A DNA stretch of 64,000 bases from an uncultured Candidatus Saccharibacteria bacterium (GTDB lineage: Bacteria > Patescibacteriota > Minisyncoccia > Phycocordibacterales > Phycocordibacteraceae): positions 9,722-73,721 of the forward strand of contig CAZQPW010000001.1 of the NCBI GenBank assembly GCA_964595305.1, written 5' to 3'. Position numbers and translations under genes: made by a program. Each line of letters starts with the position of its first letter. Position 1 is the stretch's first letter. This document shows, in pieces, positions 23,307 through 34,324 of this stretch. The notes beneath the pieces are model-generated. The model made no database searches. It saw only the letters and a program-made list of their open reading frames with translations, and was not told where the DNA came from.

Positions 23307-23377
23307 TCCGGGTTCGTTTAACGGTAGGAAAGCGGCGTTTGTAGCCTTTAATTGGGGTTCGAGTCCCTGGCCCGGAA
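23307..23377 (+). tRNA. tRNA-like gene (good acceptor stem and T-arm; D and anticodon arms non-canonical, anticodon not assignable by eye)
   Basis: 5' 'TCCGGGT' pairs with 3' 'GCCCGGA'. T-loop 'TTCGAGT' with stem TGGGG/CCCTG. D-loop carries 'AACGGTA'. The reverse complement is not tRNA-like. Confidence 0.4.
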
Positions 23378-23513
23378 CTAGAAACTGCTAGCGCGTGCTG
23401 CGAAGCAGTATGCGCGCCCAGTTTCTTTTCGGACAGGGACGAGAAAGCCGGAGCGCAATGAGCGTAGCGAAGCGCGAGGCGGGGTCGCGACCGAACGCAG
23501 TGAGAGTTGTGAC

Positions 23514-24709: not shown

Positions 24710-25135
24710 ATGGAGAGACCAAAGGTGGGGATAGGTGTGCAAGTTTACAAAGACGGAAAGCTCCTTCTTGGCAAACGAAAGGGCACTGGGTTTGGAGACG
24801 GCTTTTACTCCACACCAGGTGGGCATTTAGAAAATGGCGAAACATTTGAGCAGTGTGCTCGCCGCGAAGTGCGCGAAGAGGCGGGGATAGAAATTAAAAA
24901 TATCAAAATTATTTCGCTTGCGAACCTGTTCTCATCAAAAGCTCACTACGTAGATATCGGTATACACGCAGACTGGAAGTCTGGAACACCTACCGTGCTC
25001 GAGCCGGAAAAGTGTGAAGGGTGGGATTGGTACGACTTAAGAAAGTTGCCCAGACCGCTTATCGAGGGCGACAAGATGTACCTAAATGCAATTAGGACAG
25101 GCAAATGGTATGCAGGCACTAAGAGTGTAAAATAG
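24710..25135 (+). CDS. NUDIX hydrolase
   Basis: Nudix box 'GGHLENGETFEQCARREVREEAGIEI'. Confidence 0.85.
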   Translation: MERPKVGIGVQVYKDGKLLLGKRKGTGFGDGFYSTPGGHLENGETFEQCARREVREEAGIEIKNIKIISLANLFSSKAHYVDIGIHADWKSGTPTVLEPEKCEGWDWYDLRKLPRPLIEGDKMYLNAIRTGKWYAGTKSVK

Positions 25136-25137
25136 GT

Positions 25138-25605
25138 ATGAAGAAAGAGGTTGTGTCAGCTGAACATTTTGCAATATACTTTTCACCTCATTCTGCTCAC
25201 GCGATTGTGTTTGAGGGTAAAACCTACCCTACCGTAGAGCATCTCTACCAGTGCATGAAGTTCAAAGACAGCGATGAGGTTCAACTAGAAATTCGCAGAC
25301 AGCTCAGTCCGATATTGGCTTGGGAAGTTTCGCAAAGAAATAAGAAAAAACAGCATACGTGGTTTAGACATGAGGGATACAAGCTGCGCGTGATGAAAAG
25401 TTTGTTGAGAATGAAGGTGGCACAACATGCAGATGTTAAAAAGGCCCTCCTCGCCTCAAAAGAGAAAGAGATAGTGAAGCATATAACCACATACCCACCT
25501 GGAGACGGCTTTTGGGACGACGGTGAGTCGGGGGAAGGGTTTAATAATATGGGAAAGTTGTGGATGGAAGTACGAGAAGAGATTCTTACGATGGGAATTA
25601 AATAG
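25138..25605 (+). CDS. NADAR/YbiA-family (DUF1768) protein
   Basis: 'FSPHSAHAIVFEGKTYPTVEHLYQCMKF' matches the YbiA/NADAR N-terminal signature. C-terminal 'GDGFWDDG...NNMGKLWMEVR'. Confidence 0.7.
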   Translation: MKKEVVSAEHFAIYFSPHSAHAIVFEGKTYPTVEHLYQCMKFKDSDEVQLEIRRQLSPILAWEVSQRNKKKQHTWFRHEGYKLRVMKSLLRMKVAQHADVKKALLASKEKEIVKHITTYPPGDGFWDDGESGEGFNNMGKLWMEVREEILTMGIK

Positions 25606-25607
25606 GT

Positions 25608-26021
25608 ATGAATGAAGGCAAGAGCAAACATTTTGTAGGAGAGGTCGCGCAGAAAGCAATAGTAGAAAGCCGCGGTAAAATTTTAGTCAATAAAGGAAAG
25701 AATGATGTAATATGGGAGTTCCCAGGTGGGCGTTTGCATGATGGAGAGACTCCGGAAGAGGGGATGCGTAGAGAGTTGAGAGAAGAGTTTGGGCTCGACG
25801 TGTTTAACTTAAGACCATTTAAAGCGGTGCGATCCCTACACACTAAGTCGGGCACGTATCGAGTGCTCATCGTATATACTGCAAATTCAGCTGAGCCAAG
25901 CGCAACTCACAACGAAAATGAACTCGACGACTCAAAGTGGATTACTGCTAGCGAACTTAAGCCTCTCCCCATGTACGAAGATTGCGAAGAGGTGAAGCGA
26001 GATTATTTAAAATCGAAATAA
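25608..26021 (+). CDS. NUDIX hydrolase
   Basis: Nudix box 'GGRLHDGETPEEGMRRELREEFGLDV'. Confidence 0.85.
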   Translation: MNEGKSKHFVGEVAQKAIVESRGKILVNKGKNDVIWEFPGGRLHDGETPEEGMRRELREEFGLDVFNLRPFKAVRSLHTKSGTYRVLIVYTANSAEPSATHNENELDDSKWITASELKPLPMYEDCEEVKRDYLKSK

Positions 26022-26029
26022 ATTAGGCT

Positions 26030-26809
26030 TTGTGCTATAGTCAATTTATGGCTGCAGAGCAGGCTGGCATTCATATTTCTTTAGCACCGTACCACTTGGG
26101 AGAGGTTTGGGGGTTACCTATCACCGCGTCGCTCACCACTGCGTGGCTAGCCGCGGGCCTCATTATTATTTTCGCGCTTTTGTTTCGAAGGGGAATTAAA
26201 GAAGTTCCGGGCAGGCTCCAAAGTGTGGTTGAAGTGGCAGTCCTCGGTGTCTATGACTACGTTAAGGGTGTACTCGAGGATGAAGTTTTGGCGCGCAGGT
26301 ATTTCCCACTCATAATGTCTATTTTCCTATTCATAGCAGTTGGTAATTTGTTGGGGCTATTGCCGTTTGTGGGTGGCTCTATAGGTTTTGAGGACCCAAC
26401 TGGTGAGCATCATGGCTTAATCCCATTGTTTTATCCTATAAACACTGACCTAAACTTAACGCTCGCGATGGCCATAGTCGCTTTTATCGCGATTGAGTTT
26501 GCAGGCATTGCCGCACTTGGTGTGTTGAAGTATGCCTCAAAATTTGTTAATCTACACTCAGCTCTCGGCTTTATCGTCGGGATCATAGAGTTGGTTAGCG
26601 AGGTTGCACGACTCATCACATTTTCGTTTCGCCTTTTCGGCAATATCTTCGCGGGCAAAGTACTAATCTTGGTAGCAATGTTCTTCCTACCATATATCTT
26701 GCCTGTGCCGCTGTTGCTGTATGAGGTGCTCGTAGGTGTGATTCAGGGCGCTGTCTTTGCTCTCCTCACGCTCTTCTTTATTAAAATCGCGGTTACAGAA
26801 CCGCACTAA
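26030..26809 (+). CDS. atpB: F0F1 ATP synthase subunit a
   Basis: Polytopic. Conserved 'SFRLFGNIFAG' (essential Arg) region. First gene of the atp operon. The start may instead be the Met at 26048. Confidence 0.85.
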   Translation: MCYSQFMAAEQAGIHISLAPYHLGEVWGLPITASLTTAWLAAGLIIIFALLFRRGIKEVPGRLQSVVEVAVLGVYDYVKGVLEDEVLARRYFPLIMSIFLFIAVGNLLGLLPFVGGSIGFEDPTGEHHGLIPLFYPINTDLNLTLAMAIVAFIAIEFAGIAALGVLKYASKFVNLHSALGFIVGIIELVSEVARLITFSFRLFGNIFAGKVLILVAMFFLPYILPVPLLLYEVLVGVIQGAVFALLTLFFIKIAVTEPH

Positions 26810-27049
<240 letters not shown>

Positions 27050-27060
27050 TACTCAGGTTC

Positions 27061-27507
27061 ATGGAAGCATTAATCGGCACATTCGGAATAGATTGGCATT
27101 TGATCGTTGTTCAGATGGTCAACTTTGTGTTGGTTGTTGTTGTCCTTACTTATTTCCTTTATCGGCCACTTATACGTGCAGTTGATGCACGTACTAAAAA
27201 AATCGCTGCGGGTATCCGCGATGCTGAAGCGGCCCTTAAAACTAAGGAAGAAATCGAATCTACTCGTACAGGCATACTTGCAGAGGCGCATCATGCAGGG
27301 ACTCTTATTACTGCTCGAGCCGAAGAGCAGGCTCAAAAAGAGCGCTCGGAGCTTGTACATGCAGCTGAGGTACAGGCGCGGCACATACGTGATGATGCAG
27401 CGCGAGCAGCGGAAGAGGATGTTCGAAAATTGAAAGCTGCTGCAGAAACTGAGCTCGCAAAGTCTGCAGTACTTGCAGCTGAAAAAATATTAAGGACACG
27501 AGGATAA
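27061..27507 (+). CDS. atpF: F0F1 ATP synthase subunit b
   Basis: Single N-terminal TM then a long charged helix. Operon position. Confidence 0.8.
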   Translation: MEALIGTFGIDWHLIVVQMVNFVLVVVVLTYFLYRPLIRAVDARTKKIAAGIRDAEAALKTKEEIESTRTGILAEAHHAGTLITARAEEQAQKERSELVHAAEVQARHIRDDAARAAEEDVRKLKAAAETELAKSAVLAAEKILRTRG

Positions 27508-27508
27508 T

Positions 27509-27871
27509 ATGCGTACACTCGTTTCAGACTACAGCGCTCTTTTGAAAGGCACGTCAATACAAGCTGATGCGCTACTCGCGTACATGAAGAAACGAGGGCA
27601 CCTCTCGCTCCTCACACAAATCATAAAAGAGCTCGAGCGTGCCCCTGTAAAGAAAGATGCGGTGGTGAAAGTCGCAGCGGCGCACGATGCAGAAAGATAC
27701 GCTAAGCAAATCGCATCTCATTTGAGCGCCCACAATACAAACGACTATGCTGTTGAGGTTGATGAAAAAATAGTTGGCGGGTACGAAGTTTCTGTTGGCG
27801 AGACACTGTATGACAATACGTTTAGAAGCGCGCTCGTTTCAATTTATAAAAATGCAGTTTTACAAAAATAA
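27509..27871 (+). CDS. atpH: F0F1 ATP synthase subunit delta (short, ~120 aa)
   Basis: Operon position between b and alpha with an OSCP-like helical N-terminus. About 60 aa shorter than typical delta. Confidence 0.6.
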   Translation: MRTLVSDYSALLKGTSIQADALLAYMKKRGHLSLLTQIIKELERAPVKKDAVVKVAAAHDAERYAKQIASHLSAHNTNDYAVEVDEKIVGGYEVSVGETLYDNTFRSALVSIYKNAVLQK

Positions 27872-29426: not shown

Positions 29427-30338
29427 ATGTCGTTAAGAGATGTAAAAGCAAAGATTCGTTCCGTTGATCGTACGCGAAAGGTGACGAAGGCAATGGAAGC
29501 TGTTTCTGCAGTTAAAATGCGAAAGTCTCAGCAGCGTGCTATTGGTGCAAGGCCGTACGCGCGCTCTGCACTCAACATACTTTCGCGCCTTTCACCCTCG
29601 CTTGCTACAACCAGCCATCCGCTGACAAAAATACGAGATTTACGACGAGTTGCTCTCGTAGTGGTTACGAGTGATAAAGGCTTATGTGGGGCGCTTAACT
29701 CCTCAGTTATTAAAGCTGCTGATCGTACGATATCTGAGCTCGGTCTTACAACAGAAAACATCGACATCGTTGCGTATGGAAAAAAGTCTGCAGAATATTT
29801 TGAACGTCGTGGGTACAACCTCGTGCAGCGGCATGAAAACATTTCAGATGATGTCGAAATAGAAAGCTTACACGTAACCACCAATCTTTTAACAAACTCG
29901 TTTGTGGCTGAAAATATTGATCGAGCGATCGTAGTGTATACCAACTTTCGTTCAACATTTGAGCAAGAAGCTGCAGTACACACCCTGTTACCACTTTCAC
30001 TCGAAAGTTTTTCTAAGATTGTGCGAGGCATTACGCCAGAGAAAGGAGCGCTTAGTGGCGCTCCAGAGCAGGACGCACCCGCAGCTTACACGAGCGAAGG
30101 CGAAAATGTGGCCGCAGAGTTATTATCAATGCTATCAAGCGTGTTTCTATTCCACCTTCTATTGGAAAGTAAGGCGTCTGAGCACTCGGCGCGAATGGTA
30201 GCAATGAAAAACGCTTCTGACAAAAGTCGAGATGTGAGCAAGGCGCTTACGCGCACATTTAACAAGGCACGACAAGCTGCAATTACACGAGAAGTTTCTG
30301 AAATTGTTGGCGGGATCGAGGCTATGGCAGCTAATTAA
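29427..30338 (+). CDS. atpG: F0F1 ATP synthase subunit gamma
   Basis: 'MSLRDVKAKIRSVDRTRKVTKAMEAVSAVKMRK' canonical gamma N-terminus. ATG at 29427 lies 1 nt after the atpA stop; the ORF opens at 29364. Confidence 0.9.
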   Translation: MSLRDVKAKIRSVDRTRKVTKAMEAVSAVKMRKSQQRAIGARPYARSALNILSRLSPSLATTSHPLTKIRDLRRVALVVVTSDKGLCGALNSSVIKAADRTISELGLTTENIDIVAYGKKSAEYFERRGYNLVQRHENISDDVEIESLHVTTNLLTNSFVAENIDRAIVVYTNFRSTFEQEAAVHTLLPLSLESFSKIVRGITPEKGALSGAPEQDAPAAYTSEGENVAAELLSMLSSVFLFHLLLESKASEHSARMVAMKNASDKSRDVSKALTRTFNKARQAAITREVSEIVGGIEAMAAN

Positions 30339-30357: not shown

Positions 30358-31755
<1,398 letters not shown>

Positions 31756-31757
31756 TT

Positions 31758-32756
31758 TTACTTACGGCCAATTTTAAGTGATTGCATTATTTGACTTAAA
31801 TCTGCAAGTCTTCTCTTAACTTCTTCGGCCTGATTCGAGTTAAGGTGCAAGACAGACGTTTTGTTTTTTAAGTGTGCCTGTTCGCTGCGGTGATACATGC
31901 GAAGGAAAAATTGATAGTGATCTTGAGCTTGTCTCATTGTTTCCTGAGATAGTGACAGCATGTTCTCTGCTGAAAGCTGCTCCAGTCGTCGAGGTATATT
32001 GGACCTAAGTTTTGCAAAAAAGTCTGCCTGCTTAGAATTTCTTATGTGTTTGATTGATTCTATTAGCAGTGTATTTTGAACTAACCTAAGCGGACCGATT
32101 TTAAATGATAGCTGTCGAGCCTTTGGGTTGTAAAATACATTAGCGGCTCCATCTTCATTAAACTCGAAATGCACGGCATCGGAACCATTGATTCTATTTT
32201 TCCCGGTCAGTGCTTTTCGTGAGTCACGTTCTAAATCTTCCACGCGGCGTTTTATATGCGCTCCTTCGGCGCCTATTACTTCCTTACCAATTTCTTCACG
32301 TGCGCGCACTATTGCTTTATCATCTCCCCAAACTGGGCGAGCATCGGTTGCTATACGAGCAGGCTGAACCCTATCATACATATTGTTGAAAAAACTAAAC
32401 GGTTTTCCAAACTGTTTCCATTCAATTATTGCAACTCTGTGAGGAGCAGCGCTTCTAAGAGTTGATTCGACTCTGGATCTCATAGAGTCTATGTTTACAT
32501 TTTCATCAACTAGTGCAATGATTTCGATCTCAGACTGGTGAGAACCTTTTTCAAACCTACCATCCGATCCAGGTATTGCAAGTGCCTGCACTCCCCTTAG
32601 TTCACTAGAGATCTTGCGTAGCGCATCCTGCATTTCTGCATGGATCAGCTGGTTAAAGCCATAGATTATCTCTCCGTACCTCCCGGGGCTTTGCGGCTTG
32701 TCGGACATTCCATTAAAGATGTCTTTTGCTTTCTCTACACTAAGATCGAACGACAT
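31758..32756 (-). CDS. Nucleotidyltransferase-fold protein (GlnD/DUF294-like) encoded antisense within the atp operon
   Basis: 'IPGSDGRFEKGSHQSEIEIIALVDE' fits the pol-beta-type NTase signature hG[GS]x(9-13)[DE]h[DE]h and the GlnD-like 'GxxGRxE...S[DE]I[DE]' pattern. Long helical C-terminal region. Convergent with atpD, divergent from atpC. Confidence 0.45.
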   Translation of the reverse strand: MSFDLSVEKAKDIFNGMSDKPQSPGRYGEIIYGFNQLIHAEMQDALRKISSELRGVQALAIPGSDGRFEKGSHQSEIEIIALVDENVNIDSMRSRVESTLRSAAPHRVAIIEWKQFGKPFSFFNNMYDRVQPARIATDARPVWGDDKAIVRAREEIGKEVIGAEGAHIKRRVEDLERDSRKALTGKNRINGSDAVHFEFNEDGAANVFYNPKARQLSFKIGPLRLVQNTLLIESIKHIRNSKQADFFAKLRSNIPRRLEQLSAENMLSLSQETMRQAQDHYQFFLRMYHRSEQAHLKNKTSVLHLNSNQAEEVKRRLADLSQIMQSLKIGRK

Positions 32757-32828
32757 TTAGGTATAATAACACATCTTTGTATATAGCGCAAGTTAGCGCT
32801 TTGTGTTTCGAAAGTATATACTAGATTT
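32757..32828. promoter_or_regulatory. Divergent intergenic region (putative promoters for atpC and the antisense NTase gene)
   Basis: 72-bp AT-rich spacer with 'TATAAT' (32762-32767) and 'TATATACT' (32815-32822) elements. Confidence 0.3.
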
Positions 32829-33059
32829 ATGCATGTAGTTATAAGTCATATAAGCGAAAAGGTGTTTGAGGGAGAGGCTCTTTCCGTTATGGTGCCGACG
32901 TCGGAGGGCTTAGTTGAAATTTTGCCTAAACACGAACCATTAGTAGCTACGCTCAAGGAGGGCGAACTAATAGTCCGAGTTGCTGGAGAAGTAAAAACAT
33001 TTCATGTAGAAAAGGGGGTGCTCGAAGTTACTAACGAAAGTGTTACCATACTACTATAA
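32829..33059 (+). CDS. atpC: F0F1 ATP synthase subunit epsilon, beta-sandwich domain only (76 aa)
   Basis: 'SEGLVEILPKHEPLVATLKEGEL..V' matches the epsilon N-terminal domain. Lacks the C-terminal helical hairpin. Confidence 0.7.
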   Translation: MHVVISHISEKVFEGEALSVMVPTSEGLVEILPKHEPLVATLKEGELIVRVAGEVKTFHVEKGVLEVTNESVTILL

Positions 33060-33061
33060 TT

Positions 33062-33289
33062 ATGTTTGGAAATTTTTTCATGAAAATGATGCTGCAGCAG
33101 CAGCTCAAGAGCTTGCCCAAAGATGCGCAAGAAAAAATAATGAAAGCCTTTACTGAAAACCCAGATTTTTTCAAAAAAATCGCTGAGGAAATCCAGGCTA
33201 AGGTAAAGAGCGGCCAGTCGCAGATGGCGGCCGCTCAACAGGTGATGATGCTCCATAAGCAAGAGCTCCAAAAAATCATGGCACCATAG
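33062..33289 (+). CDS. Small helical hypothetical protein
   Basis: 75-aa ORF starting 3 nt after the atpC stop. Predicted all-alpha, Met/Gln/Lys-rich. Confidence 0.35.
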   Translation: MFGNFFMKMMLQQQLKSLPKDAQEKIMKAFTENPDFFKKIAEEIQAKVKSGQSQMAAAQQVMMLHKQELQKIMAP

Positions 33290-33293
33290 AAGG

Positions 33294-33875
33294 ATGCGGC
33301 AACGTAAAATATTTATACTCATGGCGCACCCGTCTACGGGCTCGCTCACCAACTCAATAGCAGATGCGTACGAAGTGGGTGCGCTTGAGGGCGGGCATCA
33401 GGTGCGGAGGCAAAATATTGGAGAGCTGCAGTTTGACCCCATCCTCCATGAAGGGTATCGAGTAATCCAGCAACTAGAGCCGGACTTAAAGACGTTTCAG
33501 GAAAATATGCGTTGGGCAGACCATTTTGTTATCGTGTACCCAAATTGGTGGTGTACGATGCCCGCACTCCTCAAAGGCCTCTTTGATCGCGCATGGCTCC
33601 CTGGGTTTGCATTCAAAATGCGCAAGGATGGTTGGGGCTGGCAGCAGCTTCTAAAAGGAAAGTCAGCAAGAATTATAATGTTGACCCAAAGTAATCCGTG
33701 GCTCATTTGGTTCTTCTTCGGTGACTACCGCAACGAGCTTCGCCGCGCAACACTTGGCATGGCAGGTATTGCACCGATACGCACCACTATTTTTAGCAAT
33801 GCAGAAAAATCTTCACAAGCTACATATCTGAAATGGTTTATGAAAGTTAAGAAGTTAGGCAAGGCAGCAAAGTAA
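33294..33875 (+). CDS. Flavodoxin-like NAD(P)H-dependent oxidoreductase (Flavodoxin_2/YwrO/KefG family)
   Basis: 'ILMAHPSTGSLTNSIADAY' and 'DHFVIVYPNWWCTMPALLKGLFDRAW'. Confidence 0.65.
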   Translation: MRQRKIFILMAHPSTGSLTNSIADAYEVGALEGGHQVRRQNIGELQFDPILHEGYRVIQQLEPDLKTFQENMRWADHFVIVYPNWWCTMPALLKGLFDRAWLPGFAFKMRKDGWGWQQLLKGKSARIIMLTQSNPWLIWFFFGDYRNELRRATLGMAGIAPIRTTIFSNAEKSSQATYLKWFMKVKKLGKAAK

Positions 33876-33878
33876 TTT

Positions 33879-34235
33879 ATGGAAACTTCGATCTCGTTAC
33901 GAATTGCTAAGCAGCTAATCGGAAAAGAAGTAGAAGTTACGTTTGATAGGCCACTCGGAACAAGACACCCAAAACACGGATTTGTATATGAAGTTAATTA
34001 TGGCTATATTGAGGGCATTACAGCTCCAGACGGAGAAGATCTGGATGCATACTACCTTGGAGTGTCTCACCCGCTCGCAAAAGAAAAAGGTATATGCATA
34101 GCTGTAGCGCACAGAAATAACAACGACGATGACAAATTGGTTGTGGTGCCACAAGGAACAACAATGACTGACGAAGAAATTATTAAAGCGATTCATTTCC
34201 AAGAACAGTACTTTGACACTCAGATAGTTAGGTAG
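33879..34235 (+). CDS. Minimal family-I inorganic pyrophosphatase-like protein
   Basis: 'NYGYIEGITAPDGEDLD' matches Ppa 'NYGYINHTLSLDGDPVD'. 'DDDKLVVVP' matches 'DAKLVAVP'. N-terminally truncated relative to Ppa. Confidence 0.5.
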   Translation: METSISLRIAKQLIGKEVEVTFDRPLGTRHPKHGFVYEVNYGYIEGITAPDGEDLDAYYLGVSHPLAKEKGICIAVAHRNNNDDDKLVVVPQGTTMTDEEIIKAIHFQEQYFDTQIVR

Positions 34236-34324
34236 CTTTAAAATAACTTCAATCACTACGAGAGCGCCAGCAACTCGGTCGGAGCGCACTAGATTTTAGG
34301 CCATATTTTTGCTAGAATTGGCAA

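Follow-up and report, generated by a model that had tools for sequence, protein, structure and literature searches.

Gene X is a reading frame of 332 amino acids (aa) on the minus strand that lies between atpD and atpC, the genes of the beta and epsilon subunits of F1 ATP synthase. It is found in a stretch of 64,000 nucleotides (nt) from an uncultured Candidatus Saccharibacteria bacterium (assembly GCA_964595305.1, contig CAZQPW010000001.1, positions 9,722 to 73,721), which is referred to here as the window. An original prediction, made from the letters of this DNA, described X as a nucleotidyltransferase (NTase) that splits the ATP synthase operon, and the presence of the gene at this site is borne out by the open reading frame (ORF) list, the sequence and Pfam. 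Additionally, the X/atpC junction is reproduced in an independent Logan assembly (L025, SRR12229867), which shows 97% nucleotide identity over a region that takes in the 5' end of X, the spacer, and both atpC and the gene after it. The junction is therefore not a chimeric join or an assembly artefact. The evidence assembled below suggests that X belongs to a family of compact, stand-alone NTases resembling single modules of GlnE and DrrA, and that its position in the operon is likely a local rearrangement in this lineage. The features of the locus are the following.

30379-31755, plus strand: atpD (F1 beta), the end of the atpB-E-F-H-A-G-D run (Pfam ATP-synt_ab 3.3e-74, with the N- and C-terminal domains also matched)
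31756-31757, no strand: tail-to-tail junction of 2 nt between the stop codons of atpD and X, read from the sequence
31758-32756, minus strand: gene X, 332 aa, predicted single-module GlnE/DrrA-like NTase of an unannotated family (ORF list, sequence)
31779-32321, minus strand: C-terminal helical domain of X, residues 146-326, of the HEPN-like 'substrate-binding' type of GlnE, GlnD and DUF294
32076-32102, minus strand: family signature K219-I-G-P-L-R224-L-V-Q227 in the helical domain (K219, R224 and Q227 invariant, G221, P222 and L223 in at least 93% of 76 members)
32322-32591, minus strand: predicted NTase alpha/beta core of X, residues 56-145, from the secondary structure of the model, and covered by matches to MNT/minimal NTases
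32421-32423, minus strand: codon of E112, candidate third catalytic carboxylate (E in 60 and D in 14 of 76 members), on the predicted strand 108-115
32523-32570, minus strand: active-site motif G63-S-D-G-R-F-E-K-G-S-H-Q-S-E76-I-E78, the equivalent of G-X11-D-X-D plus one residue (translation checked by hand)
32763-32771, minus strand: probable X promoter, an extended -10 element TGTTATTAT 6 nt before the X ATG, in leaderless geometry
32785-32800, plus strand: palindrome AGCGC-AAGTTA-GCGCT in the divergent X/atpC spacer, operator- or terminator-like (terminator-like scan; identical in L025)
32817-32822, plus strand: probable atpC promoter, -10 element TATACT 6 nt before the atpC ATG, with no TG extension
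32829-33059, plus strand: atpC (F1 epsilon), 76 aa, the beta-sandwich domain alone (Pfam ATP-synt_DE_N 1.2e-18)
33062-33875, plus strand: a conserved, synteny-marking pair consisting of a 75-aa helical protein gene and a Flavodoxin_2 gene, present in L003 (51% and 69% identity) and in L025

The two ends of X differ in arrangement. At its 3' end, X is convergent with atpD as predicted, while the distance between the stop codons of atpD (TAG, 31753-31755) and X (31758-31760) is 2 nt and not the 3 nt originally given. This gap is too tight to hold a terminator. At its 5' end, X is divergent from atpC, with ATG facing ATG across a spacer of 72 nt (32757-32828). The description of this spacer as AT-rich and promoter-like was accurate, with a GC content of 30.6% and promoter-like elements for both genes. 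The GC contents of X (42.5%) and atpC (42.4%) are nearly the same, and that of the whole window is 46.8%.

The family to which X belongs has gone without annotation. A word-indexed search of 5.8 billion proteins recovered 18 relatives of 317-352 aa with 36-57% identity, all labeled 'hypothetical'. Their sources are metagenome-assembled genomes (MAGs) of Kaiserbacteria, Paceibacterota or Parcubacteria, with Nomurabacteria MAGs also represented among the relatives. A second word-index search, made with a profile, gained 3 further proteins. When 1.84 billion cluster representatives were then searched exhaustively with a profile, 524 family proteins were recovered at E<=1e-3, of which 354 reached E<=1e-10. 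Nearly all of these are 300-385 aa long and match from end to end, and the family size of about 524 refers to clusters at 50% identity. Because of the 18 close homologues, whose alignment contains 44 invariant columns, and the 524 cluster representatives, X is judged to be a real gene, and its family is sizeable and of single-module architecture. No significant match to X was obtained in Pfam, NCBIfam or PADLOC. Likewise, phmmer searches of the PDB and searches with a profile of the 18-sequence alignment returned noise alone, for instance the HMA domains of CopA at E 0.19. A literature search found no description of the family, nor of a split between atpD and atpC in Patescibacteria.

The family is present in the ultra-small Patescibacteria and apparently beyond them too. 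In one contig (L016, 1963-6975), a distant member, P0135 (26% identity), follows an Aminotran_3 - Sacchrp_dh - Aminotran_3 series on the same strand after a gap of 55 nt, and the contig is rich in toxin-antitoxin genes (MazE/PemK, PIN, Fic). This gene content suggests that the family may reach past the Patescibacteria.

The fold of X was modeled with AlphaFold2 from the 18-sequence alignment. The model is confident (mean predicted local distance difference test score of 86.1, predicted template modeling score of 0.86) and begins at the N-terminus with a long helix, continues with an alpha/beta core of five strands (residues 56-61, 77-83, 108-115, 126-130 and 140-144), and ends in an all-helical C-terminal half, in agreement with the long helical domain that had been foreseen. 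In Foldseek searches with this model, DrrA ranked first (3.6e-5) and GlnE next (1.8e-4), followed by MntA, the ANT enzymes and, weakly, CD-NTases. The likeness to GlnE and DrrA spans both the NTase core and the helical domain that follows it. Moreover, the alpha/beta core has the G-[GS] turn that leads from strand 1 to the helix after it in the pol-beta superfamily. On the basis of the model, the assignment of the fold is near-certain.

Sequence profiles point in the same direction. Conservation in the family was counted over 76 diverse members, and the profile of these members, 'GSDgRlEkgpaSklElivl', aligns to 'GSQARAEAKTDSDIDFLIV' of the MNT-like NTase 9xbd_E at E 1e-3. Within this alignment, the stretch GSDgRlEkgpaSklE is paired with GSQARAEAKTDSDID of the MNT-like NTase (E 1e-3). 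The same profile also aligns to 'GSLGRQTDGPYSDIEMMCV' of kanamycin NTase. The only Pfam family touched by members of the X family is DUF294 (PF03445), together with its companion DUF294_C (PF10335). DUF294 matches were found in 24 of the 76 members, all of them sub-threshold with a best value of 7.4e-5, and DUF294_C matches in 2 of the 76 at E ~0.08. X of the window itself has no DUF294 match. Since the Pfam gathering score is not reached, these weak matches are read as a sign of remote kinship and not of membership. PF03710 and PF08335, the models of GlnE and GlnD_UR_UTase, are absent from the 20 Pfam families matched by the 18 close homologues and from the first 25 of the 26 families matched by the 76 members.

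The active site is where X departs from its structural relatives. Residues 63-85 (GSDGRFEKGSHQSEIEIIALVDE) are the peptide on which the original prediction of a GlnD/DUF294-like pol-beta signature was based, and that assignment holds by fold, by profile alignment and by the sub-threshold DUF294 matches. It does not hold for the first acid of the D-x-D motif, which is not conserved in the family. The canonical catalytic motif of adenylyltransferases (ATases) is G-X11-D-X-D (PMC12409994). In contrast, X of the window reads G63-X12-E76-X-E78, with an insertion of one residue, and most of the family reads G-X11-[P/K/L..]-X-E, so by sequence X falls outside the strict motif of the GlnE/DrrA ATases. 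Position 76 is highly variable over the family (P24/K13/L11/E6/A4/R4). The surrounding residues, on the other hand, are strongly constrained. G63, S64, R67, E69, K219, R224, Q227 and Y281 are invariant in the 76 members, while D65 (D in 71 of 76), S75 (75 of 76), E78 (E72/D4), P132, R134, D138, G221-P222-L223 and Y288 are conserved in at least 90%, and H196 in 66. The third carboxylate, expected on the neighboring strand, would be provided in the model by E112, beside which K114 is also well conserved (K64/R8). Thus, of the three carboxylates the X family retains the second (E78) and the third (E112) and not the first. D65, a family-specific residue beside the G-S turn, might serve as a ligand in its place. 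Taken together, the catalytic competence of the family is plausible on sequence grounds, although uncertain.

This pattern of conservation bears directly on whether X is an enzyme of the usual kind. X could instead be a nucleotide-binding pseudo-enzyme, serving as a sensor or scaffold, or an enzyme of altered chemistry, such as a phosphorolytic de-nucleotidylylase like the N-domain of GlnE. Most members carry only two of the three canonical carboxylates while keeping the fold and the residues for NTP binding, as would be expected of such a protein. However, E78, E112, E69 and D65 are strongly conserved, which is more acidic constraint than pure binding needs. In addition, D65 could stand in for the missing ligand, X of the window has E76-x-E78, and the N-module of GlnE retains its D-x-D. 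The pseudo-enzyme alternative is therefore regarded as possible, and as the less probable choice.

Comparison with characterized NTases helps to define the family. GlnE, the glutamine synthetase ATase (PDB 1v4a, 3k7d), is together with DrrA the top-ranked structural neighbor of X, at a sequence identity of 10-11%. While GlnE is a protein of ~115 kDa with two such modules and a PII-binding linker (PMC12409994), X is a single module of 332 aa that the Pfam GlnE and GlnD_UR_UTase models miss, and the first Asp of the GlnE D-x-D is lost in most members of the X family. The AMPylation domain of DrrA/SidM from Legionella (PDB 6yx5_B) possesses both Asp residues and is part of a secreted effector, in which it is fused to guanine nucleotide exchange factor and phosphatidylinositol 4-phosphate-binding domains. 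In contrast, X stands alone without a secretion context, and the D-X-D of DrrA is replaced by x-X-E in the X family. DUF294 proteins share the GS.GR.E type of motif with X. They usually bear N-terminal cyclic nucleotide-binding or CBS domains, which X does not have. Overall, X most closely resembles one module of GlnE or the ATase domain of DrrA and by analogy would work most like them. Within the GlnE/GlnD/DUF294/DrrA clade it is best placed on a new branch, so far without annotation, whose catalytic motif is a variant one and whose proteins stand alone. Transfer of AMP from ATP to a protein tyrosine would be the corresponding reaction, by analogy with the nearest structural neighbors alone.

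The MNT antitoxins of HEPN/MNT systems, such as MntA (7ae2_B, 6m6u), are a further group of relatives by fold. They are proteins of 100-140 aa that act with a separately encoded HEPN RNase, whereas the helical domain of X is fused, is not of the RNase type and comes with no partner gene. This comparison is relevant to the suggestion in the original prediction that X might serve in defense or signaling, either as a CD-NTase/CBASS-like enzyme or as a fused MNT-HEPN toxin-antitoxin. Such a role finds no support in the data. PADLOC gave 0 matches, the CdnE and CdnC matches in Foldseek had probabilities of 0.3-0.6 and template modeling (TM) scores of only 0.22-0.25, no effector or partner gene is conserved, and there are no phage or plasmid homologues. 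The Rx4-6H motif of HEPN is also absent, position 286 being W36/R14/K8. A defense function is accordingly considered extremely improbable.

The genomic contexts of the family were examined by gathering ~14 distinct loci, here given L numbers, and screening them with the atp proteins of the window. A related-locus search with narrower alignments turned up loci on contigs of genomes (5) and of metagenomes (7), with no atp genes beyond the known cases. The contexts are as follows.

Window: atpD, X on the opposite strand, atpC
L003: atpD, 2 nt, atpC, with X convergent 3 nt past atpC, then an RND efflux cluster and the pair of the 75-aa protein and flavodoxin
L005/L013 (Kaiserbacteria): atpB preceded by X at 2.5 kb, with two unrelated genes between them
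Eleven other contexts of X: no atp gene in the available flanks
L026: atpD, 77 nt, atpC and a convergent RND pump, with no X

Hence, X is near atp genes in 3 of ~14 contexts and occupies a different position each time (between D and C, after C, or 2.5 kb before B). The atpD proteins of the window and L003 are 79% identical. The atpC of the window is closer to that of L026 (59%) than to that of L003 (47%). The 75-aa helical protein, for which no family match was found, is encoded 2 nt past atpC in the window and is followed by Flavodoxin_2. This pair adjoins atpC directly in the window, and in L003 it is separated from atpC by X and the RND efflux cluster. The coordinates of the pair are as follows.

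Window: 33062-33289 (75-aa protein) and 33294-33875 (Flavodoxin_2, FMN reductase)
L003: 482-694 and 2-430
L025: 363-590 (75-aa protein)

All-against-all clustering of the flanking ORFs revealed no recurrent partner gene family around X. In L003 (825-5990), X begins 10 nt past the RND pump gene (ACR_tran), and YknX_C-like and MazE-like genes precede the pump on the same strand. An efflux link of this kind is suggested by L003 alone, and it would suit the idea that X is a small-molecule NTase of the ANT/Lnu type that inactivates an antibiotic or xenobiotic, enzymes with the same two-domain layout of an NTase and a helical domain. This idea is considered improbable. One small ORF of 81-84 aa, which we take to be of the YdeI/OmdA-like type, recurs 1.3-1.6 kb from X in L001 (8618-8863), L011 (3174-3419) and L014 (3173-3427) and contains ...TPLARNEWICW...RPCCWAGC.... 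It is not called as a gene in L001, and the DNA of L001 and L011 is 80% identical there, leaving two independent cases only. Its recurrence was judged to be incidental.

These contexts also speak to the proposal that X acts on the ATP synthase, which the original prediction had raised and which the comparison did not support. Under this proposal, X would nucleotidylylate a subunit of the F1Fo enzyme and so replace the regulation normally provided by the missing C-terminal domain of epsilon, and its place in the operon would reflect that link. The epsilon subunit of the window does lack the inhibitory helices. Its sequence covers positions 1-76 of the 80-position ATP-synt_DE_N profile (PF02823), so that the N-terminal beta-sandwich is present, and NCBIfam epsilon models align over their N-terminal ~80 positions alone. 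The two-helix regulatory domain was not detected by Pfam or NCBIfam, and the protein stops after the sandwich. However, the six nearest epsilon homologues are all 76-78 aa long and likewise without C-terminal helices, the epsilon of L003 is in the same size range, and the short form occurs in genomes regardless of X. By these comparisons the short epsilon is the norm in this lineage and no part of the split, and atpC, although divergent from X as described, is not 'truncated' as had been thought.

Other observations favor a link to the ATP synthase to some degree. X lies in or beside atp genes in the window, L003 and L005/L013, which belong to two clades of the X tree, and its nearest structural relatives all modify proteins (PMC12409994). 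Against these stand the eleven contexts without an atp gene, the fact that all three atp-linked positions differ, and the orientation of X, which each time runs opposite to the atp genes and has a predicted promoter of its own. In L003 and L026, atpD and atpC are contiguous, and L026 has the same neighborhood without X even though its atpC is closer to that of the window than the L003 copy is. In the neighbor-joining (NJ) tree, X of the window groups with P0002-P0005, and the known contexts of P0002, P0004 and P0005 have no atp genes; the other two atp-linked copies form a separate clade. Modification of an ATP synthase subunit by X is for these reasons very improbable. The position of X between atpD and atpC gives no evidence for such an action, and it is likely a lineage-specific local rearrangement. 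The synteny comparison confirmed the arrangement for the lineage of the window, and elsewhere the gene was differently placed or without atp neighbors.

The transcriptional organization of the locus appears compatible with such a rearrangement. Genes in the window mostly lack a Shine-Dalgarno sequence. The extended -10 motif TGnTAnnnT, often TGCTATACT, is found 5-8 nt before an ATG at 23 sites in the window, compared with 6.8 expected, and about half of these sites precede predicted gene starts, including those of atpB (26033-26041) and ychF (34310-34318). It would seem from this pattern that the genome expresses its genes mainly through leaderless mRNAs. The -10 element of X has the same geometry as those of atpB, ychF and ~12 other gene starts, and a -10 box likewise lies close to the ATG of the X homologues in L004, L001 and L009. 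The palindrome in the X/atpC spacer could be an operator common to both promoters. In L026, the 77-nt spacer between atpD and atpC contains TGATAAAAT 7 nt before the atpC ATG, though atpC directly follows atpD. Judging from these sequences, atpC appears to be an autonomous and probably leaderless transcription unit in this lineage and its relatives. If atpC has its own promoter in relatives, the atpD/atpC boundary would be permissive for rearrangement and the split would be tolerated.

The terminator-like scan found no such site at the atpD/X junction, so the two transcripts likely overlap at their 3' ends. This raises the alternative of an excludon-like switch based on antisense transcription or transcriptional interference, in which expression of X and read-through from the atp genes would be antagonistic and atpC would escape by its own promoter. 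The tail-to-tail junction of 2 nt, the -10 boxes of X and atpC at leaderless distance, and the equally tight convergent junction of 3 nt between atpC and X in L003 are all consistent with it. Nevertheless, small genomes that are densely packed with genes often have tight convergent junctions, the overlap of 3' ends follows from compaction and does not require selection, and in most contexts of the family X is not convergent with atp genes. A switch of this type is compatible with X being an independent NTase, and it is considered unlikely.

The simplest reading of the arrangements is that in a sub-lineage of these bacteria X once lay just downstream of the atp operon and convergent to it. Afterwards, X would have been lost in L026, kept in L003, or locally reshuffled with atpC in the lineage of the window. 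A mobile-element origin of X was considered and rejected, as there are no phage or plasmid homologues, BFVD matches are to generic NTases alone, no direct repeats flank the gene, and its GC content is only mildly lower. X is also bracketed by a perfect inverted repeat of 13 nt (TTTCTACATGAAA / TTTCATGTAGAAA), at 31713-31725 in the 3' end of atpD and at 33000-33012 in the 3' part of atpC, of which ~0.03-0.1 such matches are expected by chance. It was rejected as an inversion scar because inversion would break both atpD and atpC and because a neighboring repeat pair is not colinear, and it is probably coincidental.

In the reading preferred here, which is given a probability of about 0.55, X is an independent accessory NTase of a compact GlnE/DrrA class whose most probable reaction is the transfer of a nucleoside monophosphate from an NTP to a hydroxyl, likely that of a protein, and it came to lie in the atp operon through a lineage-specific rearrangement that is tolerated. 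The NTase core, with its G-S turn, E78 on strand 2 and E112 on strand 3, would pack against the HEPN-like helical domain, and NTP-Mg would bind in the cleft between the two domains by analogy with the three nearest structural neighbors. The nucleoside monophosphate would then be transferred to a hydroxyl, most likely of a protein. The fold and the motif are demonstrated, and we infer both the chemistry and the substrate from these analogies. X would be transcribed independently from its own promoter of the leaderless type, and the rearrangement would have fallen at a point where, in relatives, atpC is already served by a separate promoter.

Several observations weigh against this reading. The Pfam models GlnE (PF03710), GlnD_UR_UTase (PF08335) and NTP_transf_2 give no match to X even at E<=1. 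The first D-x-D carboxylate is missing in ~90% of the family, with P, K, L, A or R at position 76, and although X of the window has E76, its closest homologues have Q or A. Members of the family could be inactive or could use other chemistry. The promoters of X and atpC are probable ones predicted from sequence alone. Furthermore, 3 of ~14 contexts near atp genes exceeds the chance expectation for a genome of ~1 Mb, and atp-linked copies are present in two NJ clades. A weak functional or regulatory link may therefore exist. In its strongest form, such a link would make the family unrecognized stand-alone protein nucleotidylyltransferases, with the metal ligand moved to D65, that modify F1 (beta or the helix-less epsilon) as a brake replacing the C-terminal inhibitor of epsilon. 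Convergent transcription would then co-regulate X with the atp operon, and this would account for the recurrent location of X at the 3' end of the operon. This combination is regarded as highly improbable.

Few enzyme families are known to AMPylate proteins, namely the GlnE/DrrA-type ATases, Fic and SelO (PMC12409994). X is a member of a sizeable family of compact modules resembling the first of these (~524 clusters), which is above threshold in no Pfam, NCBIfam or PADLOC model and in which the catalytic motif is systematically altered. An active family would provide a new minimal scaffold for the nucleotidylylation of proteins or small molecules in organisms about whose regulation very little is known, and an inactive one would be a bacterial family of pseudo-NTases. 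As a candidate for either, it merits biochemical attention. The operon split is a smaller point and a lineage-specific curiosity, although the apparent autonomy of atpC implies that a core bioenergetic operon can be broken between atpD and atpC without harm.

The remainder of the ATP synthase operon lies upstream of atpD and consists of the following genes.

~26048-26809, plus strand: atpB, ATP synthase gene
26822-27049, plus strand: atpE, ATP synthase gene
27061-27507, plus strand: atpF, ATP synthase gene
27509-27871, plus strand: atpH (delta), ATP synthase gene, 120 aa
27875-29425, plus strand: atpA, ATP synthase gene
29427-30338, plus strand: atpG, ATP synthase gene (probable assignment)

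Of the 172 positions of the OSCP profile, the product of atpH covers only 61-169, and the delta subunit thus seems to be shortened in this lineage, as is epsilon. Directly 5' of atpB and on the same strand is a NUDIX - NADAR - NUDIX trio (24710-26021; Pfam 7.8e-20, 6.8e-19 and 7.2e-17), which could be a cluster for the processing of ADP-ribose or nucleotides. Scans for Rfam families and tRNAs found nothing in or near the locus, and no Rfam family reached its gathering score in the window. The sole tRNA in the 64 kb is a tRNA-Gln at 23307-23378. Downstream of the flavodoxin gene, an ORF of 118 aa (33879-34235) resembles inorganic pyrophosphatase at a score just short of the cutoff (22.9 bits, with 23.5 required; E 8.4e-5; positions 29-99 of the 153-position profile) and could encode a shortened or divergent form of this enzyme.

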